A stretch of DNA of 55,777 bases, the filler included, from Circinaria calcarea (Eukaryota), in NCBI GenBank assembly GCA_051942165.1. It is 5 parts of 5 records of this genome, joined end to end, with 100 filler letters (N's around TTAATTAATTAA, not from the genome) between each part and the next. Parts side by side here need not be neighbours in the genome. Positions count along the whole stretch, not along the records: positions 11,187 to 22,265 come from JAVECS010000715.1; 4 more parts are not named here. One strand, given 5' to 3'. This document shows positions 1,395 through 30,377 of the stretch, piece after piece. A program made the position numbers and the translations under genes. Position 1 is the first letter of the stretch, and every line of letters begins with the position of its first letter. The notes under the pieces were generated by a model that did not search any database, had not been told where the DNA came from, and was given only the letters and a program-made list of their open reading frames with translations.

Positions 1395-2998
1395 TCATAC
1401 AGCATCAAACCCTTTAACTACCGTGCCATTCCCATTTTGCGTCGGCTCTGAAAGATGACCATTCACGCGACCATCTGCCCGGCCTTCTCTCACTGCTGAC
1501 GTTGGCCTTTGATCTAAATGGACTAGCGGAATGTGAGAGGTCGTAGCCGCCGACCCTCGCTGCTCTAGATGTCCGAGCGAGCCATGGCGGGAATAATACC
1601 AATCCGAGGCCGTGCCATCATCACCAGTCTTTGTAAATCGCATTTCGGTATGATTTCTTCTTGGATCCGATCTCAACGATAGTCTCTCCGCAGCGTGGCG
1701 GATTCCAGCCAAAGATAGGTTCCAACCACGCCGGATTTGTTTGGGAAGAGCGTGGGCAGCACGGAAGCTTAGGCTGGGGAGGTTGCAAGCAATGAGACCG
1801 ACGCCAATCTCGACGGCTGGCCACGTTGAGAAGAGAAGGCCAGACCCTATATGCTGGTATCAGCTAGGGAACTAGCCGGAAAAGACTCACAATGAGGAGC
1901 AAAGGGGGTTTTGTCAGCGATGGCTCGCTTGTTAGCTGTTTGGCTCACGTACCTTGGAAAAAGTTTGCCTGGCCTCCAGTTTCTACAACCGTAGGTTTCG
2001 TCAAGTAGACCAGCTGGACAATTGTGTTGCTGAGGCCGGCAACAAAGGCGCTTTCAGATATTAGATCTAGTCATGAGAATAAAACGATGCAAATTCGTCA
2101 CTCACAATCCTCCGAGTAAGAAAATTGTTGCGATTATTAGTTTCCGCGAGAGACTTAATTGCAACCTCCAGACCTATATTGAATCCGCTTGGTCAGTTTT
2201 TGAAACCACATCAATGAATAACGGTAAAGATAGTCACTTACAAAGGGTATTGGCAAAACAAGTAGGAAGAAATCAATAAAAGTGTCCAAGCAAAAAACAC
2301 CCATCTGGATATCGAAACCCCATGGATCGCAAGCGCCCCAGCCACCTTCAAAGTTGGCATGGAGGTTTTTACCGCAATACAAGATCCAGGAGAAAAAGCC
2401 ATACACTATCCAGAGGAAGGAAAGGCCTATTAGAGTCCAGTTGCAGATATTAAAAATTCGACCGATGAAGATACGGCGGTAGAAGAAAAGAATAGAGAGT
2501 TTGATCAGAGCGTTGGAAGCAATCCAGAATATTACTAATGCGCCCGTCACCTAGAACCAAGCGGCATGTCAGTATCGGTTCGATAAGAAGTAGTCGAGCA
2601 AACGTCGAACTGGAATGAACCGAATTGTATTTACTTGCGCAAGAACACGTTGCTGCTCTGTGACAGAATTGGGATCTGTCACTGATTGCTCGACGAAAGC
2701 GTTCTTGAAGACTCCTTGGCGGCACGTTATTCTCGAAAAGCAAAAGTTCAAAACAGTAAGTTACCAGTCAGGAGTGAGGCACAACAGCCCGTTAGGGAAA
2801 GCTGACGAAGAGTTAATCCCGCATCTGCCTTTGTAGTTTCTTGAAACAAACCCATGCAGGCAGGCAAAGCCAATCATCAATTTGCCTCGAGGTCTTTTGG
2901 TGCCAGCGAATGTAAAATCGAAGCGCCACAAGAATTCCGCCGATGACAGGAAAGACAAATCCGATGGCAATAGCACTACTACGTGTTGCTATGCCCAT
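1395..2998 (-). CDS. PTH11-like / fungal rhodopsin-domain integral membrane protein (multi-exon)
   Basis: N-terminal TM followed by 'VALRFYIR...IDDWLCLPAW', then 'LIKLSILFFYRRIF' and 'IDFFLLVLPIP'; GT-AG introns link ORF fragments 2813-2998, 2155-2550 and 1395-1712. The 3' end is approximate. Confidence 0.8.
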
Positions 2999-4315
2999 CT
3001 TAGCGACCTATAAACTTTTCGAAATGAAGACTGGGAGAAAAACAGATGCTAGGTTCTCTAATATAATTGTGGCCAACTTGCGGCGCAGCTTTTTCATCAA
3101 ATGCTAGGGTGAACTACCTACACTACAGCATTCCTTCGCAAGAGTGATACAAGACGCACGCTGAACCTTCCCGTAGTGGTTACCCTGGGTGTGGAGCGCA
3201 AGGATCGCTCGAGTCAAGTAATTCACGCAGCAATGCAGGCAATTCCTAGGCTTACTTTACAGCGCAGTATCAGTGAAATCCGCCAGTAAGAGAATAAATA
3301 CTCAGGTTGGGGCAACCGGTAGAGTTGCACGAATCATGGATGACCACCCCCGGGAGCTGATAATGGCGATCTTGGTATGTTAGCGGCCTGGTAGCTTGGT
3401 CTCACAGCATTTTACCTCGGCGGTTCTAAGCTGAGAAAGATAAAGTATAAGATTGCTAATCGGAGCTACAACTCCTTCAAGACACCTTAGAAGATAGAGG
3501 CACGGGTTATGCATCGTCGCCAATCATAGAGGAAGTCATGATCGGCAAGGAGAGGGCAGAGTGGTGGCGGGAAGGAACATGCTCCTATCCGAGCGGTCCA
3601 CCTTAGGAAAGGCCGGTGAGGCATTTATGCGTGACTTGTGTGTCGGAAAATGGCTTGCTCGGCTAGGAGAAATATAGGGGCCCCCACTTCGCATCGGATA
3701 ACTGCGCTGCCAACGTTACGCTTTTCAAACGTCGTACCACTTCAAATGCTGATGTACGGAGTAAGATTGCATCATTTATCGGGTGATCTTCCACTATCCC
3801 GTGAATCTTAAGGTAATCTGATGTAATTCTGGGCAGACCCGTACTCCCGGCTGAAAGCTAGTAGGCCCATTGAGCCCGATAGTCGGGAACGCCAATCATC
3901 CACGTCTTGAAAAGGGTAACGGCCGGAGAATCGGTTATAAGGCAAAAAGCTTCGCCTCCCTCGTGCAGGATATCTATTCCCGCAGATTTCACTTATCGTA
4001 GATTCTAGCACCGGCCATTTAACTTGAATGACTGGGCTTCGAGGATCTCGAATAATAAAAACTGCGAAGGGATGCGACCCTTCGGATTGGCCGCATTTGG
4101 CCTAGTCTGCTGCTGTTTTCACTGTGTTTCGACTGTGTTTATTTGCCTCAGAAGACTTTACCCGTAATTGTTTGCATAAATATTCAGTGATTCTTTGGCT
4201 CACCGCTCAAAGAATAAATGATGAAGTGTTAAGCACACAGGAACGTCTCTCATCTTTCCACTATCGTGATTCTTCCCGGATAAGAAGCACTTGCCCTAAA
4301 ACCTTTCAAACGGCC

Positions 4316-5839
4316 ATGAAGTGCCTTTCAAACGACTCGAGTGTGGAGAATGTAAAAGAAGAGGCAATGGAGGGCCAGAGTACCGCGGGAGCTGTTGATT
4401 TTGTGTCAGAAGGCCGAAAAATTGACGAGCGAAGTATAGATCTTGAACTAAACGAGCGCAACGCACAAAAGCCACGGAGAAGATATTATATCTTCCCAGC
4501 TTTACCTTCCAACGACCCTGGACCTCCTCCAGACGGCGGATTTACTGCTTGGCTACAAGTGCTGGCCGGCCATCTTATGTGTTTTGTCACATGGGGTCTT
4601 ATCACGAGTTTCGGTGTCTTCCAATCGTATTATGAAGAAACACTCGGACTTGTACCATCTGCTGTCTCGTGGATCGGGACGATACAGATATTCTCCCTTC
4701 TCGTGATCGGTACATTCTCGGGCAGAGCAAGTGACGCGGGCCTTGTGCACGAGGCCGTCTTCGCGGGCACCTTTCTAATTGTCTTTGGCATTTTCATGAC
4801 AAGCTTATCAACTCAGTACTATCAGCTGTTTCTGTCCCAAGGCATGTGTGTAGGGTTGGGCATGGGCATCCTCTATATGCCCGGACTTTCGGTACCTGCA
4901 TCCTATTTCAAGGACAAGAAGTCTCTTGCAGTGGCTATCATTGCTTCTGGAGCCGGGTCGGGAGGCCTCGTCTATCCTGCTATGGGGCAGCAGTTGCTTC
5001 CGCGTATTGGTCCATTCTCCAACTGCCCCAAGCGTCAGAGCGAAGAATGATGCTAATTTGAAGCAGGATTCGGATGGACTCTTCGCTATATGGGGTTCGT
5101 CACGCTCGTCGTTGCTATTGCAATTAACTTGCTCCTCCGTATGCGTGTACCCCCGCGAAGATCAGGACCTATTGTCGACTGGAGAGCATTTACCGAGATA
5201 CCATACATATTTTTTGTCATTGGTTTCTTTCTTATCTATTGGGCAGTGTACTTTGCATTTTACTACGTAAGTACTTTTCAGACTCGACTTTGATATGGAT
5301 CGTGCCACTGACGTAGAGTAAAGATAGACAAGTACGGTCATACGTTTGCCGGTTTCACGTCTGTCGATTCAATCAATATTTTGCTCACCTCCAATGGTCT
5401 GGGTATACCAGGAAGAATTCTACCCGGATTCATCGCATCGCGATGGTGCGGCCCACTCAACACGGCGATCCCAACAGCGACCTTGGTCGCGATCATCTTA
5501 TACTGCTGGATTATCGTTGGAGACTCTCGCAGCGGGCTCTACGTTTTTGCTGCCATTTACGGTCTCGTCGCTTCTGCAATCCAATCTCTCTTTGCGGTCT
5601 CTCTCGCCGCGCTCACGGACGACCTCAGTAAGCTCGGTATCAGGATGGGGATGGTTTTCAGCGTGGTAGCTTTTGCAAGCCTGACTGGAAGCCCCATAGC
5701 CGGAGCACTGATCCAAGCGGACGGTGGGACATATCTTGCGGCGCAAATTTGGGGGGCAACAAGTATGCTTCTAGGTGCAGCGGCTTTGACTATTGCACGG
5801 GTTGGGCGAACGGGTTTGGTCCTGCGGGCTAAGACATAG
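4316..5839 (+). CDS. MFS transporter, monocarboxylate porter (MCT/Mch) family
   Basis: 'PPPDGGFTAWLQVLAGHL...TWGLITSFGVFQSYY' signature and many TM helices over three exons (introns near 5010-5066 and 5267-5322). Confidence 0.9.
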
Positions 5840-6208: not shown

Positions 6209-6479
6209 CTAGTTCTCAGCATACGAGCTGGCCGCTTTCTCTCCCACTTGAAGCATCGGATCCGTTTCGAAATGGGCTCTCTTGCTACTGTAACCAGCAA
6301 ACGACGATGCCTCCTTCTCCCCAAGTTGCAACATCGGCTTGGTTTCAGAGTCTGGTAACATTGATCAGTTGGGACTGCTGGTATGGGGATCAAGAATCGT
6401 GCTAACTGGCAGGGTGAACCACTGGAGCCGCTGCTGCGCAGGCAGCTAGAAGGGTAACGAGAAACGTAGCGGTGAGCAT
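6209..6479 (-). CDS. Kex2-processed repeat protein (KEP), putative dikaritin RiPP precursor, 71 aa
   Basis: Manual translation: exon 1 6479-6407, intron 6406-6352 (GTTAGC...ACTGAT...CAG), exon 2 6351-6209. Product MLTATFLVTLLAACAAAAPVVHPANSETKPMLQLGEKEASSFAGYSSKRAHFETDPMLQVGEKAASSYAEN*: signal peptide and two imperfect repeats separated by KR. Divergent from a DUF3328 gene. Confidence 0.82.
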
Positions 6480-7459: not shown

Positions 7460-8474
7460 ATGGTGTCTAACGCAGCTAATTATACTCCGCTACCAAATAA
7501 GAAGGGTTCTGAACAAGAGTACACAGCGGGCGATGAGTCAGAAATTCCATTGATTAACGAGGGTGGTATGTTTTCCGATGAGAAGCGCAGGAATTTAAAA
7601 CGGTACTGGTTCTGGATTGCCTATTTCGGGAGTGTAATAGCTATGTCAGCATTGCTTGTTGAAGTACAGCAAAGTATTCGGAACAACCGACGCGAATGTT
7701 GGGACATGTTTAATTACTATTGTAAGCGCGTCATCGGATTGTTGCTACAGAATATTGAACTGAAAAAGGCTGATATTTACACGCCCGGGCGTGTTTCAAT
7801 AGCTCCTGTTAATAGCGCAGTTACTCCAAACCCTCATGTCCACCGACAATTCAACGGCTCGTTATGGTATCAAAGCCCCTTCAAGGGACCACCAACCCCA
7901 GATGTGGAAAAAGCTTGGTACGATATTATGAAATGTAAGTAAATGGATGTCTGTTCCTTAAAAACCCTTCGATTTCGTTACAGAGATAATTCTTCGCTAA
8001 CTTCACGATGATGGTACAGATGGCCTCATTAGCGTATCCAAGGAGGATATAAACAAAGTGAAACACCCTGACTGGTCGGCGCAGTTCCCACCCGAAGCCG
8101 GCGGCGGCTACATCGCTGCGACGATCGGCTCGCATCAGCTGCACTGCTTGCACTATATCTGGCAGGATCATCATATCGATTACTTTGTGAAAATGCAGGA
8201 CAAAAAGCGACGTGTGCCGGAGCTTTATGAGAGACACTATGAGCACTGCGTGGATTATATTCGGCAGAGCCTTATGTGCCAATTTGATACTGGGATCATC
8301 CCCTATAACTGGGTTCTGGATCACCAAAATCCGACGCCGAATGCAAATACGCATCACAAATGTGTGGACTGGGACGCGCTGCAAGCCTGGCTAGGAAATA
8401 GGACGGTGGAGGTGCCGGAGGGCTTCAAATGGTATCAACCCAAAAATGCCGTGGCCATAGGATATAATCCGTAG
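7460..8474 (+). CDS. UstYa-like / DUF3328 oxidase
   Basis: N-terminal TM anchor, 'SPFKGPPTPDVEKAW', and twin HxxHC motifs 'HQLHCLHYIW' and 'HYEHCVDYIRQSLMC', then 'HKCVDWDAL'. Introns 7722-7802 and 7935-8019. Confidence 0.93.
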
Positions 8475-8818: not shown

Positions 8819-10300
8819 TTAATGTTTTTTGATCGCAAATCTTCGAATTACTTCATCCTCGGCGAAAAACCTTGTAACTTCCTCCTGTTCATTGATTATA
8901 AATTCGCAGCTTCCGTCTGGCAGCCGCGGCAGCACCACCGGCATTCCGGGGATAAGCCCTCGGGAAGGCAGCCGAAATGCCTCAATCTTCCCTCCCAATG
9001 CCTTCCCAAAGTCGATCTCGTGCATCTCAAACCCGAAATAGCTGACAAGTAGTATACTTCCGATAGACAAGTCCTCTAACACCGACGGTCGAGTGAGTAT
9101 TTCCATGTCCGTCCTCTCGACGAAGGCTAGCAAATCTCGGAACTTGTCCGCCGTGGCGCCATTTACCTCCGCGCGTATCGCGCGCGCTGCGGCCTGGAGC
9201 CCTAAAATCTGCGAGGCGTCGAAGCTATCGGTGGCGGGTACGAGGTGTGGGAAAGCGAGGGAAGCCTTGACCCCGTAGATGGCATTGCCGAAGTATGGCT
9301 CGGGGAGATGGAGACGTGTGCGGCAGTCGATGGCCTGGCTGAAATGAGTGATTATGTGGCCGGAAAGGACGCCGGCACGATGGCGCGCGAACATTATGCT
9401 GCGCCAGATCAGTGCAGCGATGGCGTCATGCGTCGATATGCTGGTAGCTTGATCGGGATACTGGATTCGCTGACCATCTGGCGGATGTGAAATGTTAATG
9501 GCGGCGGAGGCGGACGACGAGGGCGATAATGATGATGCGACCTGTTTTAGGGTACGAAGCGAGTCGCTGCTGATGTGGAAATGTGTGCAGAGAGTCTTCG
9601 TACTAGCGGAGCCGCCATGGAACTTGAGGGGCGATGCAGTCCAGCCTGGATGGTTTTCAATGGTACCGGGAAAGCCGTTCCCCGAAAGCAAGAAGGTGCG
9701 GTCGAATGAATAGGATTGCCTTGGCTTTTTTTCAGGACCGGTGGAGAGGCTCGTGAGCTCACCTATTTGGGCTTTGCGGAGCTTGTCCGCGAACAGTTTC
9801 AGGATATCTGAAATACCACGTCCATCGCAGACTGTGTGGATGATGGAGACAACCAAGAGAAGACCACCTCTGACGAAATTAGCCCGCATGCGGCACACAT
9901 CGATCGGGCCATCTCGGATATAGATAGGTTCGGGGAAGGGGCAGAGCTGTTCTGTGTCCAATAATAATGGGGAGAAGTGAGCTTTACGTAAATTCAGGAA
10001 ATCTATGTCCTGAGAAAGATCTTTAACCTCAAGATATGCAGCACCTTGGGGACGGAGATCGTGTAGCCATGGTTGGTCCTTGGAGAAAAGCACAATGGAA
10101 CCTGCCAGAAAAGGGAGCTCTTCCACTGTAGAATGTAAAGCCGCAAAAAGCAAGTGAACGATATTCTCGTTGTACTCGTTGTTAGTATTCGGCAAGGGAA
10201 AACACAAGACTCTTTTCGAGTACAGGGGCGTCATTCGTTTATCCCAATGGGATAGCTGGAGAGTGAAAGGAGGACAATGAACTGCGAAAACCTTCTCCAT
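8819..10300 (-). CDS. CoA-dependent O-acyltransferase (transferase family, Tri101/BAHD-like)
   Basis: 493-aa intronless ORF with HxxxD motif 'HTVCDG', 'YFGNA' and 'DFGKALG'. Confidence 0.88.
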   Translation of the reverse strand: MEKVFAVHCPPFTLQLSHWDKRMTPLYSKRVLCFPLPNTNNEYNENIVHLLFAALHSTVEELPFLAGSIVLFSKDQPWLHDLRPQGAAYLEVKDLSQDIDFLNLRKAHFSPLLLDTEQLCPFPEPIYIRDGPIDVCRMRANFVRGGLLLVVSIIHTVCDGRGISDILKLFADKLRKAQIGELTSLSTGPEKKPRQSYSFDRTFLLSGNGFPGTIENHPGWTASPLKFHGGSASTKTLCTHFHISSDSLRTLKQVASSLSPSSSASAAINISHPPDGQRIQYPDQATSISTHDAIAALIWRSIMFARHRAGVLSGHIITHFSQAIDCRTRLHLPEPYFGNAIYGVKASLAFPHLVPATDSFDASQILGLQAAARAIRAEVNGATADKFRDLLAFVERTDMEILTRPSVLEDLSIGSILLVSYFGFEMHEIDFGKALGGKIEAFRLPSRGLIPGMPVVLPRLPDGSCEFIINEQEEVTRFFAEDEVIRRFAIKKH

Positions 10301-11086
10301 TATCTAAGCTCGGATCTCGATAGAGCTTTGTTGAGCTTCAAAAATGTAGCGATTTTAAGGCCGAGATGTATAGATAAAGCCCAGCCAAAGCGTTCGAAAT
10401 TCGATAATAAGTATTTATAAAAAGCCGCCAACTCGATACGGTTAAGCTTTGTCGCTCAAAACAAGCGTAGAATAGGGCCCACGATGAAAAGGGAGTTATT
10501 ACATGAATGCCATTATATAGAGGCGAGGAGATTACCCAGTTCCTTTGAATTCATAGTCATAGATAAAGGAATAATGCTTAATTTAGTTAATATAATAATA
10601 TTAACGGTATATACGACATAGAGAGCTACGGACGGGAAATGAATGAAGGCCGAAATCATTATATACCTCTTTTAAGTCATATACTCCCGGGAAGGGTTAT
10701 CTTGTCATTTCATAGGCAATACTCTAGACACTGACGGAGTCTAGAAATACTGAGGTCCCAACCTCCACCCGCGGTATAGTCAGCTGTTCATGCTTCTTGT
10801 TGGACTAACTCGCCAGCCTGTCTCCCTGTGTTCATAAAGCATCGACCCCATCCTCTACCCCATGAAGGCCTCATATGCTCATCCTTCCCCAAATTAGGGC
10901 AAATCCTCTCCATAAGTCCGTGCCATCTCCCACTGCCTAATTTTTATCTCTCCTCTTCGCCTACCCCTTCACCCCTTCCTTCTCACCTCCCTCCGCTACC
11001 CAATCATCCCAACTTCCGCCATACTCACCCACCTTTTCCCACCCCGCCATCCTCGCCATCCCGGCCGCAGCCCTGCTCCTAACTCC

Positions 11087-11186
11087 NNNNNNNNNNNNNN
11101 NNNNNNNNNNNNNNNNNNNNNNNNNNNNNNTTAATTAATTAANNNNNNNNNNNNNNNNNNNNNNNNNNNNNNNNNNNNNNNNNNNN
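11087..11186. other. Artificial contig spacer (N44-TTAATTAATTAA-N44)
   Basis: Six-frame stop linker inside an N run; identical to the other three spacers. Confidence 0.97.
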
Positions 11187-11510
11187 CCGCTCTACCCACC
11201 CCTTCCCCAGAAAACAACCCTGGCCAATACGGCCATATCGATCGCATATAAAAAGCACTTTGCCCTCCCTCAACTTAATCAACTCAAACCATAAATCTCC
11301 CTCACCCTTAAACAATATATCGATTTACACTTAATTCCCCCCCCCCCCTTTCCTTTTGATAAAACGCCTCTGACTAGCCCTGCACCGTAGATGCACCAAC
11401 TACCCCATCATAACCGACGTATAACCAGTTTTCTCGAATTCGAATTCGAATATTTGCCCCGGCAACTCTCTCTCCGCCGTCTTTTTCGCCTCTCGTCTCT
11501 GCTTGCCTGG

Positions 11511-11541
11511 CTGGCACGGCTGGCACGGCTGGCACGGCTGG
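11511..11541 (+). repeat. Tandem 9-mer repeat (CTGGCACGG)x3
   Basis: Directly visible in the sequence. Confidence 0.75.
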
Positions 11542-11723
11542 GTATTTGCGTGAAGGAACACTGGCTGGGTAGAATAGAAAAGGAAGGAATTACGAGAACA
11601 GGGAACGGGTAACTACTAAACTATTGTGGCTTATTCTATATGGTTAAGGCCTATTGGTTGGGGCCGAGAACGCGGGCGGTTGGAAAGAGATGCCGGGTTT
11701 GAGATAAGGTGCAAGGTAGAAGA

Positions 11724-11840
11724 GGGGATGGCGGTAAGATGTTGGCGGCGGGAGGTAGGGTATAAGAGTAAGAGGCTCTACTATAGCGGGGGGGATATGG
11801 CGGTAAGATGGAAGTGGTGGGAGGGTATGGCGGTAAGTGA
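11724..11840 (+). repeat. Dispersed short direct repeats ATGGCGGTAAG x3
   Basis: Three copies in a purine-rich, low-complexity stretch near the contig end. Confidence 0.55.
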
Positions 11841-12149
11841 ATGGGGTGTGGAAGTAAGGAATAGGCATGTTTTCGGGGGTGTAGGAGTAACACGCCGTTC
11901 TGATAAAGATCTTGATAATGTTGACTGCTCTACAAGAACAAGGCAGATGCATCATGCGTTTCTGGGGACGTTTTGGTTCATCTCTCCATTCTGCAGCGCC
12001 ATCACCCAGTCCTTCCATATCCGACAAGTCATGAGGTTCGAGGTAGTTTCAAAAAGAGGGGACAACATAATCTTTGCTGATAGCAGAAAAACCTCTCACT
12101 AATCCAGTGATCCAGGGTAAAGCCTGCGAGTCTCCTCCGAACCGATAGG

Positions 12150-13229
12150 CTACTCGACTTTGGCCCAAGACGGTGATTCGAGCTGCGGCTGGAGGCCGAC
12201 CATTCTCGCCCGGGCCCACTGATCGAGCTTGTCCCAGTTGGTACATACCCGCTCACTGTTGGTCTTAACGATGGGTTTCCGGTGTTTCTGGAAGTAAGAC
12301 TTTGGTTGCCATTGGTAAGTATACAAAGCAGGATTTGCCGCGCACATTAGCGAGTTGCGAATGGCTTCAATACAGTGATCTAAATGGATGGTCGACGCCT
12401 TAGTTTGAGCAAAAGGAACCAAGGAGGGGCCAACCGGGGAGATTTGGGTCGCTTACCAAGGTGAGATATCTCGTACGCCGTCTCCGAGCCATTCAGGTTG
12501 GGGTAGTAACGGTCCTTGTGAAGGTATAGCTTGATGCGACGCTTGAGAAATGGGTCAGTGATGTTGGCGGAAGGAGCTTAAAGGATGATTTACCAGGCAG
12601 TGCAGTTCATGCCCTACTCCGAGAGAGCCCATGTATCCGCCTCCTTCGAGGCGTACCGAATTATCGGGATCCTCGCCACCCAACGCCATCTCATCATAAG
12701 AGACTCGGATGAGTGCAGCTGCGCCTGATATCAATACGGTACTAAGACTCTGCCAAAGAACTCATACGCGTTACTAAATTAAGCCAGGCATTATCTTGGT
12801 CGTCCGATGGTGGACCTGCAAAAACCTCCGGATTTTCGGTAGCGTGCTTCTTCTGGGTCTGAAATTGGAGGGCGCTCCTTGCTGGCGCTTTGGGTTTGTC
12901 AGCCCTGAAACAGCTGGGCAGGTTCGTCCTCAAGCCAACCAAAGGAGTTTATACATACTGTATGGAAAGAAGGTCTGGTATAATTGGTGATTTCCCCGAG
13001 TAGTCGTCACAACTATGAAAAAGAGGGATCCGGCAACATAAAAGGCCAGAATCAACGTGACAACAGAGTAGCAGAAACGACGGAGGGACCTATTAGAGCG
13101 GGTCTGTGGCCCTCTTGCACTGTCGAAGTAAAGGTCATCAACAGAATCCAACGAAGAATCCCGTTCTGACACGAGGCCAGTTTTTGGAAGACCATTGTCA
13201 AGTATTGCAGTATACTTGTGGTCGTCCAT
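12150..13229 (-). CDS. Second UstYa-like / DUF3328 oxidase (multi-exon)
   Basis: Start 'MDDHKYTAIL', TM anchor, 'FAGPPSDDQDNAW', 'GVGHELHCL' (near 12595-12620), 'HLDHCIEAIRNSLMC', 'CTNWDKLDQWA'. Confidence 0.92.
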
Positions 13230-13853
13230 ATCGGACAAGGTGATACACTGGGGAGAAAAGGCTGTACGAGATGCTTTAAGATAAGAATTGATGTGTTCGA
13301 GTGCAAAGGAACAATGCACAAGAGGTTAGGGTTCAAGAGGAAAATCAGAAAGGCGATGGTGTTGGAGTATGGAATGAAAATAACGGAGGTATTGAAACGC
13401 TTAAGTTTCCAAACATACCTTACCATGGGTCGACGTCAATGTGCCATTTACTGCTAAGCCTCCTCGTATATGTGCGGACAACTGAATTGTGGGGCTCTCG
13501 CCGGGGCTTCTTCCGGATTGGATAGCTGGTGCATCTCAGCTCCTTTTGTGCAGCGTGATATTGGTATTGGCACGGCACCTCGACATCATGCATGGCAAGC
13601 CTCTCGGGGTAGATTGGGCCCCTTGTGCAAGGATAAGCCCAGTATCATAGGTTGAGCAGAAACGGTCCACAAGGGCTTCGATCCAGCTCTGCTACGCCGG
13701 AAAACAGCGGGAAGACCCAGAAGTGTATTTAGATGGGAGTCGTGCCCATGGGAAAGGTGCCAGATTCCCACCATCTAGTCTCAAGCTCCAACTCATATCC
13801 TCAGCTGTCTTTCCATCAATCTTTGCGCCTTCACAAACTTCGAAACCAGCAGA

Positions 13854-14054
13854 ATGCATATCTACCACCTTATCACCGTCTCCTTGATTGCTTTCCTCAG
13901 CAGCCTTACCATGGCCTTGCCAGTCCCAGCTGACTGTAAGTTAAATCTCTTCGTGAAGGAAAAGGGCTGCGTGCTGACGATAGAAGCTTGCAATGCTGGC
14001 GTTGCTTCAGAAAAGGGACCTTCGACCCTGGCTGGTGTGCAGTGCTTGAAGTGA
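13854..14054 (+). CDS. Small secreted Cys-containing peptide, candidate RiPP precursor (49 aa if spliced)
   Basis: Signal peptide MHIYHLITVSLIAFLSSLTMA; 51-nt intron 13936-13986 (GTAAGT...GCTGAC...AAG); mature part LPVPADSCNAGVASEKGPSTLAGVQCLK. Divergent from the second DUF3328 gene. Confidence 0.7.
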   Translation: MHIYHLITVSLIAFLSSLTMALPVPADCKLNLFVKEKGCVLTIEACNAGVASEKGPSTLAGVQCLK

Positions 14055-14355
14055 TGGATATTAGTTGCTTGCGGGCCATGATTGTATTTCTTTGTTGAGG
14101 GAGGTTGAATCATAGGGTAGTGCAGATAGGGCTTAAGAATGCCATCGAGATGAACAGGTTAGATGGCACTGTGAGACTCACGATGTTCTATAGTGAGATG
14201 CCGGTTGTATTAGCATCCAGTCTTTACCATTGTTTGTTAGTATCAATATTAAGAATAGGAATTCCCCCATGATCAACCAACAGTGATCCTGTGGTGTTTT
14301 GCGCTTAGCGGAGCGGGATTACCATACTCCGTACTGTACAGCACAAACCACTACT

Positions 14356-14394
14356 GCGGGACTTGTCATCCTCTCGCGGGACTTGTCACCCTCT
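14356..14394 (+). repeat. Tandem direct repeat GCGGGACTTGTCAYCCTCT x2
   Basis: Two near-identical 19-mers with 20-nt period. Confidence 0.7.
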
Positions 14395-14667
14395 TCAGTG
14401 ACTTCAGGAAGCCGGATATGAAGGTCTATTTCTCGCGCCTGCTATTTAGTAGTCCCCTAACATTAGTCAATAGTGATGAAAGACGTTTTGGCGCAGTCGA
14501 ATCTATTGTACAAAGCGAGCGAAGTACCACTTGCAAAATGCGAGACCGGGGCTGGCCGGTGCTACAGAATACGAAATACCCTATATCATGCGTTCAACGG
14601 CTTTCGTAATATTAGCAGTTCACACGCCTCATTCCTACATCCAGATGCAGTCACACTGCAGCTTGCA

Positions 14668-14724
14668 AATCCTGCCGCCCGTCATCCTGCGGCTTACAAT
14701 CCTGCCGCCCGCCAAATCCTGCCG
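14668..14724 (+). repeat. Imperfect tandem repeat, ATCCTGC(CGCCCG) core x4
   Basis: AATCCTGCCGCCCG twice plus two partial copies. Confidence 0.6.
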
Positions 14725-15121
14725 TAGTCGTCTTGGGTCGTATTTGAGTTCTAACCTCCATCCACGTGGATTGATATGCAGATCCGCCAAGGGGGGCCCC
14801 TTTGTTGCTGCCTGATTCGACCTTCATTCCATTACCACCCACCTTCATGCGGGAGCCCCAGAAAGGCAGGAGATCGTGCTTCGGAAAACGCCCTCGGAAG
14901 CAAAGGCATGGCCATTGGCCGAGCTTTCGCTAAGACACCCCGTATCAAATGCTGGCCACACATTCGAGGATTAGATGGAATGGATCATGCGCATCTTATT
15001 GTAGTCTATGGCATTTGGCCGTCTACAGTCCGTAGACCACACTACTGCTGATACCGGCAACATCTTTAACTTTCTCTTAAATTATCTTGATCGGGCCCTA
15101 ATATTTGTCATTGTCTATTTC

Positions 15122-17152
15122 CTATCCTCTGATATCAACCTCCACTACTGGTCCCTTGTAGATTTTGCGAGCGTACAAGAAATAGTAGGGGACTGCGAAA
15201 AGGATCACTGCGCCGACCATGAGCGAGCTATAATTCATCGTCGCAGCAGTCGGGTTGGTCGCTGTAGGGAAGAAGCTGAAGATCAATACCACAATCATAT
15301 ATGCACAGCCGAAGATGTTGTTGATCGTCCCAAAAGGCTCAGGGATCCGGAAAGCTCCCCACCTCAGATCACCGTCCATTGTATTTGTCAATGTATCCTG
15401 TGTCAAGGAGGATGGTTTAATGTCTCCCGTAAGTCGGCGGTACAGCAGAAGGCTATTGCCGATCAGGTAGGACGTATACAGGCCGTTGATTGAGAGCGAT
15501 ACCACGTCATTGAATGCTACCGAGGATCCGAGACTGATGAGACTGAGGAGAACAGCAATGATAGCTGTCACACCGATTGAGACGAGAGGAAGCGTACTTC
15601 GAGGCTCAACCTAAGCCCATGGTTATTGAGCAGTCACCATCCGTAGGAGAAGTAGACGACATCAGAATTCCAGCTGACGTGCTGGGCTTACCTTGCTTAA
15701 ATATTTCCAACCCGGAGTTCCTCGGTCACGTGCGAACGACCAGGTCATCCTCGACGCTGTAGCAACGAAGCTAATAGTGGCACAGATATTCAGGATAGTG
15801 ATAAGCGCAGCCATGGTCGACGCCCCCCCTAAAGAGCCTACAGCTTGTTGGAATATCGCCATGAAGGGATATCCAGTCGGCGTGGAAAGGACTGCATCGA
15901 CATCGCCTAAACAGAATAAGGCGGCAACAAGCATCCCAAACCCCAGGCCACCATTGATAAGGATGCTAAAGATTATTGCGCGTGGGACATTCACCGAGGC
16001 ATTCGTAATTTCCTCGGACATCTACACGGTCAGTAAGCATGATGAAGGCCTGCCGCCGGCACAAAAGGGCTTGCCAAATGTTAGAAAAACCTACGTGGAC
16101 TGCACCGTCGGCACCTTGAGTGTACGTTAGTGTTGCCCTTAGACTAAACTTCAATAGCCGCGGGTAACTCACCAAGAAGGCTAAATACCGGTCCCACTAT
16201 TCCAACCATAAATGAGACTCCTTGAGTTTGCCAACCACCTCCATTGTAAAAAAGTGTGAAAACATCGGAAGCTCTCCCATGGGGAGCATAGTAAACCAGC
16301 GGAACCAGAATAGCGAAGAATCCCAGTGTATGTAGAACCAGAATAACGCCTTCGATCTTTGGGAAAAGGGGACTCATGATCGTGTTTACCAGGATTGCAA
16401 CCGTAATTGCGGCCCAATATAGCAAGACGAGTTGCCATGGTTGCGGGCTGTAACTGCCGTTGTTCAAGTTAATCAATCCTTGTATAAGCGTTGCACAAAG
16501 GAAGCCCCCAGAAGCAACAATCGCCTGCCAGCCCACCATTGTCAGCCAGCCTACAGTAGTTAGAGAATAGTTCATATCGGGCAGCGGAGGGGTGAATCGA
16601 CCTATTAGGTAGCTAAGGAATTTACGACTTGAACGAGGGGCCAACATAGAAACCCAGTGATATTGTCCTCCAGCGGTGGGAGCCCTTGATGAAAATGTTA
16701 CCATGTATTATCCAAGCTAGTAGGATGCAGGACGACCTACATGGACGCCAACTCTGCCATTGTCGAAAAGGATGAGGCTGTGCCCAACCACACCAGTAAG
16801 AACCCATAAACCGAACCGGCAAAGCCGCCGTTGGTGAAATTGATGGTGAAAAGGCTATGCCTATACTGAGAGCTGCATCAAAGGTTCAATTTATAGCCAG
16901 CTCACAGTAACACGCCCTCCCATGTTATCATCACTGTACAGCTAAACCCCAGCATCGACAAGAAGCCGAAACTTCGCTGTATTTCATCAGTAGGGGAACA
17001 ACGCACGTGACGCTTTGACGAACCTTTAGTATCGGCTTCTTCCCCAACCGCGTAAGTTCCAAGTCATCACGGTCTTTGCGAGAGCGTTCAGAAGGCAGCT
17101 CCGTGTAGGCTACCGTTTCGTCAAGAGATTTGAGTGCTACAGCTTCTGCCAT
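15122..17152 (-). CDS. APC-superfamily amino acid/choline/GABA permease (multi-exon)
   Basis: 'LTRLGKKPILK', 'APTAGGQYHWVSMLAP', 'GADGAVHMSEEITNAS', 'SRMTWSFARDRG', 'MNYSSLMVG'. Confidence 0.92.
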
Positions 17153-28571: not shown

Positions 28572-30377
28572 ATGTCGTCTCAAGATCCTGCTCTTGTCGA
28601 ATGGCTCCAGCCTTTGTTGATCGATGACGCCAAACTTCAAGCTCTTACGCGCGAATTGTCCTCGACATACAGCTATTTAGCACTTCACTCCCAAGAGCAA
28701 TTTTTCTCCACCCCCGTCACAAAATTGCCAACCGGCAACGAGAAAGGAACAATACTCGCCATCGATTTCGGTGGAACAAATTTGCGGATTGCTTTCGTCG
28801 GTTTGGTAGGGTCTGGGGTCGGCGTCGAAAGGAAGGCTGGAAGCGAGCGGACTGTCCAGGACTGTCATGGCTCAGGCAGCTACACAGCATGTTTCCGAAA
28901 ACAGCATGAACACAGCTGGCCTATAGGAGAACATCTCAAAGTTGAGAAGGCGGAAGATCTCTTCGTCTGGATTGGAGATTGCCTGGCCGAGGTGATAGGC
29001 GCTCAGGTCAACGCCGCGGTACTTGCGGGCAAGGAGGAGCCATTCGATGAGATACCCTTAGGGATCACTTTTAGCTTTCCAATGATGTAAGTGACCCCGT
29101 AACCCAAAGGGTCCCCTGCCAAGGTAAGCATCCTGACCGCCCTGTCTTTCTATTCTCCAAGATTTGGTACTCGTTCATTCTATAGTCGCAAGGCGATCTT
29201 AATTCAATCCGTGTCCTCGGGATTTTCTAAGACCTGGGGTACCTTCGAAATCGTAAGTATACAGACTAATTGACCAATTGACTTTAGGCAGAGTAAATTA
29301 GCCGAAGCCACGCTCATGCCCATGGGTAAAGGGTTTGCTATCAGCTCCAAATTAGACCTGGGCGAGATGGTACTTGCTGGGTACAAAAGACATACAGAAG
29401 GTATCAATAACGCCAGCGAACACGGAGCAAAGGCATTGCCGAAACTCTCAGTCGCCGCGATTACGAATGATGCTGCAGCCACATTATGCTCTTTGGCTTA
29501 CTCAAGTAGATCACTTGGACATGGTAAAGCGGTACTGGGCCTTATCCTGGGCACCGGCTGCAACGCTGCAATATTAATGGCGATTGAAGCCCTTCACCCG
29601 TCGAAGTACCCTACGGATCGGAGGGATGACGACCATCAGGTCGTGGTCAACACGGAATGTACGATCAAAGGGACTGCACCACCCTTGCGGAATCTCGGGA
29701 TCATCACGCAATGGGATACACTCTTAGATCAGGCCCTTCCAACACCTGGGTACCAACCGTTTGAGTACATGACGGCAGGATATTACCTCGGCGAGATTGC
29801 GAGACTAGTTGTACTGGACTACTTTACACATCGTCTAGGATTTCAGAAGGAAGAACTACCTCGGGCCATCTCCAGCCGCAATGCTTTAACGACTGAGTTC
29901 TTTTCCCGAGTAGTCGCCACTACATCCGATGCACCAAGTCTAGCCTCGAAACTTAACGCCGACTCGAACCTGGGCAATGGCGATTGGGTCTGGACAGCAG
30001 AGCTTGCAAACGTGGTCTGGCAAGCAGAACAAGCAGTCGTTCGTCGCTCGGCCGCAATGATAGCCGCTGCTACCGTAGGACTCCTGAGTTGCTCTGGGGA
30101 GCTGGAGTATGAAGAGAACATTATGGATCCTATATCGGCGGTCCCCAAAAGCAGACCATCATCCACTGCGGACCGGCAGCTCCTGATCGCCTACTGTGGG
30201 GGCTTGATCACACTCTACAAGGGATACAAGGAACAAATTCAGTCGTTCATCAATCGACTTGTTGACCATCTACCTCCCAAGAAGAACCAAACTGAAGTAT
30301 TGCTTCACGAAGCCTCCGACGGCGGCCTTTTCGGAGCGGCAGCTCTTGCGGGGACCGTATGGTCTTGCTCGAGGTGA
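28572..30377 (+). CDS. Hexokinase family protein, atypical (N-acetylglucosamine kinase / HxkC-like)
   Basis: 'AIDFGGTNLRI', 'LGITFSFPM', 'MGKGF', 'NDAAATL', 'GLILGTGCNA', 'YLGEIARL', 'DGGLFGAA'; intron of about 200 nt near 29087-29288. The subfamily is inferred. Confidence 0.85.

Follow-up and report, generated by a model that had tools for sequence, protein, structure and literature searches.

UstYa-type enzymes oxidise peptide side chains in the Golgi/endosomal lumen, and the ustiloxin pathway needs two UstY proteins. In the asperipin-2a cluster, the precursor AprA is accompanied by one DUF3328 oxidase (AprY), a major facilitator superfamily (MFS) transporter and a reductase, and in the ustiloxin cluster the precursor UstA is found with UstYa and UstYb (PMC12048977, PMC7329392). 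Other DUF3328 enzymes, namely CctR, CctP and CctO of cyclochlorotine biosynthesis and ApnU, serve as hydroxylase, halogenase and transacylase on non-ribosomal cyclic peptides, where they act on aliphatic C-H bonds without Tyr; in CctR, a copper-dependent hydroxylase, a disordered N-terminus in the cytosol is followed by a single membrane helix and by a helical domain in the lumen, where the motif HxxHC(x)nHxxHC binds two coppers (PMC12435403). Here we describe a window of 55,777 nucleotides (filler included) of Circinaria calcarea DNA (assembly GCA_051942165.1), in which an UstYa/DUF3328 gene, UstYa2 (13229-12150, minus strand), and a small open reading frame (ORF), P2 (13854-14054, plus strand), run away from each other. 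A first-pass annotation had proposed that P2 could be a non-canonical, single-core substrate of UstYa2. The reading that we favour, at about even confidence, is that the two are neighbours and not enzyme and substrate: UstYa2 would belong to the cluster of a different small gene, P1 (6479-6209, minus strand), or stand alone, and P2 would encode a lineage-restricted small secreted peptide.

The locus shares several features with the asperipin-2a and ustiloxin clusters. Its UstYa oxidases carry both HxxHC motifs, it contains an MFS transporter gene and more than one UstYa gene in the neighbourhood, and P1, which lies beside the first of these UstYa genes (UstYa1), combines repeats with a Kex2 site. 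Unlike the precursors of those clusters, P2 lacks repeats, dibasic sites and aromatic residues, and P1 has just two repeats. Furthermore, a BAHD-type acyltransferase is found among the scanned ORFs instead of a tyrosinase, methyltransferase or reductase, and the UstYa genes are joined only through a gap. UstYa2 belongs to the same family as CctR, CctP, CctO and ApnU and, going by their description, has the same predicted architecture, but those enzymes sit in non-ribosomal peptide synthetase (NRPS) clusters, and no NRPS domain is seen among the scanned ORFs of the window.

Similar to this locus, the lichen UstY clusters of Clans R1 and R2 have no identifiable repeat precursor (PMC12048977), and the window appears to come from a lichen-forming ascomycete too, as the nearest named relatives of its hexokinase-family protein are from lichen-forming fungi. 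Clan R1 contains tyrosinase, O-methyltransferase and sulfatase-type genes, and in Clan R2 GNAT acetyltransferases flank one UstY; neither layout, as described, is found in the window. A different kind of comparison is offered by acalitide, whose precursor AcaA (81 aa) holds a single core with four Cys that form two disulfides, the peptidase AcaB making the head-to-tail lactam (PMC10840396). By its description, AcaA resembles P2 in being a non-repeat, Cys-containing fungal peptide that repeat-based mining would miss, but it is matured by the AcaB peptidase and not by a DUF3328 enzyme.

The UstYa2 gene

The introns of this fungal DNA are spliceosomal and short. Enumeration of GT/GC...AG introns between the conserved pieces of UstYa2 yields a complete open frame of five exons and 276 aa, which runs on the minus strand from the ATG at 13229-13227 to the stop codon at 12152-12150. 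The exons span 13229-12959, 12887 (or 12881)-12768, 12718 (or 12724)-12594, 12541-12457 and 12379-12150. At junctions 1 and 2, two acceptors 6 nt apart fit equally well (12887/12881 and 12718/12724, respectively), and junction 3 has one solution only, with an AAG acceptor. The Pfam profile PF11807 matches three of the five pieces: the exon-5 piece at 62.5 bits (E 6.7e-17, cutoff 25), and the exon-2 and exon-3 pieces at 19.4 and 18.0 bits, which is below the cutoff and at adjoining profile positions. The N-terminal and fourth pieces have no match. Judged from its sequence, UstYa2 is thus an intact gene and a member of the UstYa/DUF3328 family, located where the first-pass annotation had placed it.

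The spliced protein carries HELHC at residue 167 and HLDHC at residue 199, with 27 residues between the two motifs, and the second motif is assembled across intron 4. In this part of the gene (12380-12460, minus strand), the final codons of exon 4 read ...SHL, and an in-frame reading of the end of intron 4 gives ...IHL before the D-H-C of exon 5, so that the second motif is readable with or without this splice pattern. By hydropathy, a membrane helix is predicted at residues ~53-75 (the most hydrophobic 19-mer, 56-74, has a mean Kyte-Doolittle value of 2.64), and it is preceded by a polar N-terminus of 50 residues. From the general properties of the family, we take UstYa2 to be a single-pass membrane protein with a lumenal domain, in which the two HxxHC motifs are predicted to form a two-copper centre. 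Cys 213 and Cys 246 are located downstream of the second motif and may correspond to the C-terminal Cys pairs that make the inter-monomer disulfides of CctR.

A search of longer-protein clusters with the exon-5 piece gave 10 candidates, of which none was scored; this result carries little information, the relatives of this fungus being represented mostly by exon-sized ORF fragments. A metagenome scan with the same piece returned 257 pattern matches and a single locus confirmed by tblastn, which was rejected: it lies on a bacterial contig with an ABC-transporter ATPase ORF.

P2, its structure and its standing as a gene

The ATG codons of UstYa2 and P2 are separated by 624 nt (13230-13853), in agreement with the divergent spacing of ~620 nt given by the first-pass annotation. 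This intergenic region contains TATTTAGA at ~13727-13734 and a pyrimidine-rich tract directly upstream of the P2 ORF, and an A occupies position -3 of the P2 ATG. Exon 1 of P2 (13854-13935) comprises 27 codons and 1 nt and encodes a signal-peptide-like N-terminus. It is followed by a 51-nt intron (13936-13986), which has a GTAAGT donor, a CTGAC branch motif and a tandem TAG-AAG acceptor, and by exon 2 (13987-14054), which consists of 22 codons and the stop codon (14052-14054) and encodes the mature part with its two Cys. Removal of this intron gives the 49-aa peptide that had been predicted, and it does so only when the second AG is used.

The first 21 residues of P2 resemble a signal peptide, with a hydrophobic core at residues 6-18, small residues at positions -3 and -1 and a TMA/LP cleavage context. 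The call was made by crude hydropathy and the -3/-1 rule rather than by a trained predictor, on ORF starts of at least 40 codons, and 20 starts in 55.8 kb pass this rule; most are segments of membrane proteins, and by our reading about seven lie in unsupported or antisense frames. Of the earlier description of P2 as a secreted peptide, the signal-peptide-like start stands, and secretion itself is putative.

Cleavage at the TMA/LP site would leave 28 residues with two Cys 18 residues apart. Direct reading bears out the earlier account of this mature part as one with two Cys and with no KR site, repeat or aromatic residue. No KR or RR site and no internal repeat are present in either the 49-aa spliced form or the 66-aa unspliced form, the P2 DNA contains no tandem repeat, and the 28 residues past the signal peptide in the spliced form include no F, Y, W or H. 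The only Lys residues of this mature part are one in an EK pair and one at the C-terminus. The 66-aa form arises because the unspliced frame is also open; it contains four Cys and one Phe. P2 was also considered as a CAAX-type pheromone and rejected, as just two residues follow the last Cys at the C-terminus. At 14356-14404, some 300 nt downstream of the P2 ORF, there are about two copies of a 20-nt unit, GCGGGACTTGTCACCCTCTC.

P2 is probably a real spliced gene because it contains a strict intron pattern that occurs above expectation and because its codon usage is coding-like; we hold this with fair, not high, confidence. The pattern GTAAGT-N20-50-CTGAC-N3-20-AG is found four times in the window, while 100 dinucleotide shuffles give an expectation of 0.52 and never reach four; two of the other three matches fall inside Pfam-supported genes (rhodopsin-like and MFS). 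When the expectation (0.52 per 111.5 kb of two strands) is scaled to the 200-nt P2 ORF, ~0.001 chance matches in the sense direction are expected. By codon usage, scored against the long supported exons of the window, the P2 ORF ranks at the 89th percentile among 197 ORFs of 40-90 aa. Exon 1 and exon 2 score 0.156 and 0.072 log-odds per codon, like the UstYa exons, and the four plus-strand ORFs downstream of P2 score between -0.018 and 0.006. Given the non-coding codon usage of these four ORFs, the possibility that P2 is the 5' part of a longer gene was rejected; the two of them that were scanned (14259-14606 and 15005-15490) match no Pfam family. Taken as evidence for a gene, the signal-peptide-like start is weak, and the sense intron, which is more than chance, is much stronger.

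A less probable view, which we nevertheless take seriously, is that P2 is non-productive. It would then be either a chance ORF in the promoter-distal intergenic region or a gene whose splicing at the first AG leaves a 27-residue signal-peptide stub, and UstYa2 would be an ordinary orphan DUF3328 gene. Signal-peptide-like ORF starts are indeed frequent, with 20 in 55.8 kb, of which ~7 fall outside supported genes by our reading; P2 has no accepted homologue in 1.84 billion representatives, no Pfam family and no Atlas match above 0.82, and its intron is in frame and stop-free, so the reading frame alone cannot discriminate. The expectation of ~0.001 for the sense intron pattern argues against an accidental ORF, as does a codon usage that is like that of real exons and unlike that of the ORFs directly downstream.

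The second form of this view depends on the acceptor. Splicing at the first AG (intron end at 13983, intron length 48 nt) brings ...GAC T next to AA..., so that a TAA stop codon follows residue 27, and the 49-aa product is made only via the second AG of TAG-AAG. Where acceptors form a NAGNAG tandem, splicing generally favours the upstream YAG, which points against a productive P2 site. The branch point spacing points the other way. In P2 the distance from the branch A is 9 nt to the AAG acceptor and 6 nt to TAG, and in neighbouring introns that are fixed by the reading frame three CTGAC/CTGAT motifs place the branch A 11-17 nt from the acceptor, with AAG acceptors in use, which makes an AG at 6 nt less likely. 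In UstYa2, intron 2 has a weaker TTGAT branch motif 6-12 nt from its acceptor, and in intron 4 none was found. Branch spacing and the use of AAG next door mildly favour the productive acceptor of P2, in a sample of three or four introns. If the second AG is used, P2 would be made as a 49-aa pre-peptide and would give rise to a 28-residue peptide able to close one disulfide.

A further intron of the window, that of the rhodopsin-like gene at 2174-2241 (minus strand), has an AG 5 nt past the branch A of its CTGAC motif that leads to an early stop, and an AG 20 nt downstream that keeps the frame (frames were read by hand). This suggests that AGs very near the branch point are skipped in this organism.

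P1, UstYa1 and the role of UstYa2

P1 is a small predicted two-exon gene of 71 aa on the minus strand (6479-6209) with a signal-peptide exon, repeats and a KR site. Its exon 1 (6479-6407, ATG at 6479) encodes the signal peptide and is followed by a 55-nt phase-1 intron (6406-6352) with a weak donor, GTTAGC. Exon 2 contains two 19-residue repeats, which are identical at 14 of 19 positions by our count and have one KR site between them; each ends in an aromatic-containing stretch (SSFAGY and SSYAEN, respectively). Codon usage is coding-like in each exon, at 0.17 log-odds per codon. P1 is arranged head to head with UstYa1, the starts of the two genes being 980 nt apart, and is found ~6 kb from UstYa2, across a contig join. 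With these features, P1 as predicted is a much closer fit than P2 to a Kex2-processed repeat precursor (KEP).

UstYa1, the first UstYa/DUF3328 gene of the window, runs on the plus strand at 7460-8471 and has two exons with a GTAAGT donor at 7935. PF11807 matches the piece 8001-8471, in the second exon, at 112 bits (E 5e-32). UstYa1 and UstYa2 are 33% identical over 63 residues (E 3e-11) and contain one and four introns, respectively; they are old paralogues and not the products of a recent duplication. On either side of the P1-UstYa1 pair there is a gene for an MFS transporter with several exons (4106-5839, plus strand; PF07690 E 4e-9 on the piece 4106-5047) and one for a BAHD/trichothecene 3-O-acetyltransferase-type acyltransferase (8822-10303, minus strand; PF02458 E 8e-22, PF22664 E 5e-17). 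No tyrosinase, methyltransferase or reductase is seen among the 66 window ORFs that were scanned.

With P1 as a candidate precursor, with several DUF3328 genes usually accompanying one precursor and with many others being orphans, the simplest role for UstYa2 would be that of a second P1 oxidase or, failing that, that of an orphan. A KEP gene is accompanied by 1.7 DUF3328 genes on average, the mean distance being 3.09 genes, and of 9399 DUF3328 genes only 31.8% have a KEP within 15 genes (PMC7329392). In the arrangement that we propose, UstYa2 would be the second oxidase in a small cluster of the dikaritin type and would act on P1 together with UstYa1; the order of this cluster would be MFS transporter, P1, UstYa1, acyltransferase, gap and UstYa2. 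If the contig join is wrong, UstYa2 would be alone, like most DUF3328 genes.

The join is formed by runs of N around a TTAATTAATTAA linker at 11088-11187. TTAATTAATTAA is an all-frame stop linker, and the whole segment looks like an artificial contig join. With such a gap and linker, the order of the two halves, their distance and the linkage of UstYa1 to UstYa2 are statements of the assembly and not facts of the sequence. The first-pass annotation had called UstYa2 the second DUF3328 gene; the window does contain two PF11807 genes, and their linkage runs only via the N gap with its linker.

The stretch to the left of the gap (10900-11087) is C-rich with CCGCCAT units, and that to the right (11700-11860) is G-rich with three ATGGCGGTAAG-type units at 11728, 11797 and 11827. 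A pair of 24-nt arms, 11016-11039 and 11810-11833, is 83% complementary. The stretches that flank 11088-11187 may represent an inverted repeat, now diverged, at which the assembly broke.

Several points weigh against placing UstYa2 with P1 and treating P2 as a neighbour. P2 is directly adjacent and divergent to UstYa2, and DUF3328 counts peak at the gene adjacent to the precursor (PMC7329392). P1 and P2 are built alike: in each, a phase-1 intron (51-55 nt) separates the signal-peptide exon from a short exon for the mature part. Both diverge from an UstYa gene, so that UstYa1-P1 and UstYa2-P2 could be equivalent units. The full-length collinear alignment of P1 and P2 has a score of 33, which is reached by 61 of 2000 shuffles in a test that flatters two signal peptides; it hints weakly at a shared origin. 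The link between UstYa1 and UstYa2 runs only via the artificial contig join, and the membership of UstYa2 in the P1 cluster is putative. The two promoter regions share no motif above the level of control windows: UstYa1-P1 and UstYa2-P2 have four 10-mers in common against 1.81 expected, and 13% of control windows reach four. Among the scanned ORFs in the 44 kb to the right, there is no NRPS or other core gene that could serve as an alternative source of a substrate. Finally, repeat precursors were not found in the study of lichen UstY clusters, whose authors suggested a single core peptide as one option (PMC12048977).

P2 as a substrate of UstYa2

Taken as a substrate, P2 would be a single-core, Kex2-independent precursor whose signal peptide takes it into the secretory pathway and which UstYa2 then modifies in the lumen. 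In a variant of this explanation, P2 would be a degenerate one-copy paralogue of the P1 repeat and thus a second precursor of the same cluster. We regard this explanation, its variant included, as improbable. P2 does adjoin UstYa2 directly and divergently, at 624 nt, and the slot beside the precursor is the one with the strongest DUF3328 enrichment (PMC7329392). P2 nevertheless has no repeats, dibasic sites or aromatic residues, three of the features that define known UstYa substrates, and the nearby P1 is a more conventional candidate, which gives UstYa2 a simpler role. With no aromatic residue to act upon, UstYa2 would have to perform aliphatic C-H hydroxylation or halogenation, or form a new cross-link, in or beside a disulfide-closed 19-residue loop. 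The first-pass annotation had pointed out that DUF3328 enzymes also carry out non-Tyr chemistry, and this agrees with the hydroxylation and halogenation documented for the family (PMC12435403); yet the DUF3328 literature since 2021, as represented mainly by titles and abstract openings, describes no enzyme that acts on such a substrate.

The topology would fit, since the catalytic domain of the family is lumenal (PMC12435403) and the N-terminus of P2 is of the secretory type. Use of the upstream AG of the tandem acceptor, however, would end the peptide at residue 27. The UstYa1-P1 pair provides a parallel with a like small-gene architecture, but the promoters of the two pairs have no common motif. 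A local alignment of the P1 repeat with P2 covers nine residues, five of which are identical; the mature parts of P1 and P2, when aligned, score 22, which is reached by 184 of 2000 shuffles. The similarity of P1 and P2, as measured by these alignments, is not significant. Protein searches found no homologues of P2 through which a conserved pairing with a DUF3328 gene could be traced. The idea of a single core has been raised for lichen UstY clusters (PMC12048977).

The proposal that P2 is a single-core substrate draws on adjacency and a shared secretory route, and we consider it unlikely. The chance is equally slim that P2 is the founding example of a single-core, Kex2-independent and aromatic-free UstYa substrate, with the two pairs being independent enzyme-substrate units. 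The question has some reach, as for about two thirds of the DUF3328 genes of fungi no recognisable repeat precursor lies nearby (PMC7329392). If unannotated non-repeat peptides like P2 were their substrates, they would make up a large hidden class of fungal ribosomal peptides, and mining rules would change; P2 would then be the kind of precursor that the lichen UstY cluster survey could not find (PMC12048977). The evidence stops short of this and describes an UstYa gene that is intact and ordinary, beside it an orphan peptide gene that is probably real and, in P1, a more conventional two-repeat candidate that had not been annotated. In practice, spliced micro-genes beside UstYa genes in lichen fungi merit systematic, intron-aware searching.

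A word-indexed search of 5.8 billion clusters with the 66-aa ORF of P2 gave no candidate that shares three words. HMMER with the same ORF over 1.84 billion representative proteins gave two matches, which were rejected as translations of tandem repeats that align in 14 and nine short weak stretches, respectively. P2 matches no Pfam family at E up to 1, and its best score in the Atlas, 0.82, is below the lead threshold and is attained by shuffled proteins a third of the time. The window contains no second copy of P2, the best other tblastn match having an E value of 0.65, and Rfam gives no match on 11188-15200 at E up to 0.1. Annotation seldom covers small spliced genes, and the failure to find relatives is accordingly weak evidence.

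An exon of the hexokinase family (XprF-like, 29274-30374) was used as a control for the same kind of search. Its nearest named relatives are from lichen-forming Lecanoromycetes (Trapelia, Lasallia, Xylographa and others), at ~50% identity, and the window thus probably comes from a poorly sampled lichen-forming fungus. Relatives closer than these (90, 79 and 77% identity) are present only as ORF fragments of exon size on short contigs.

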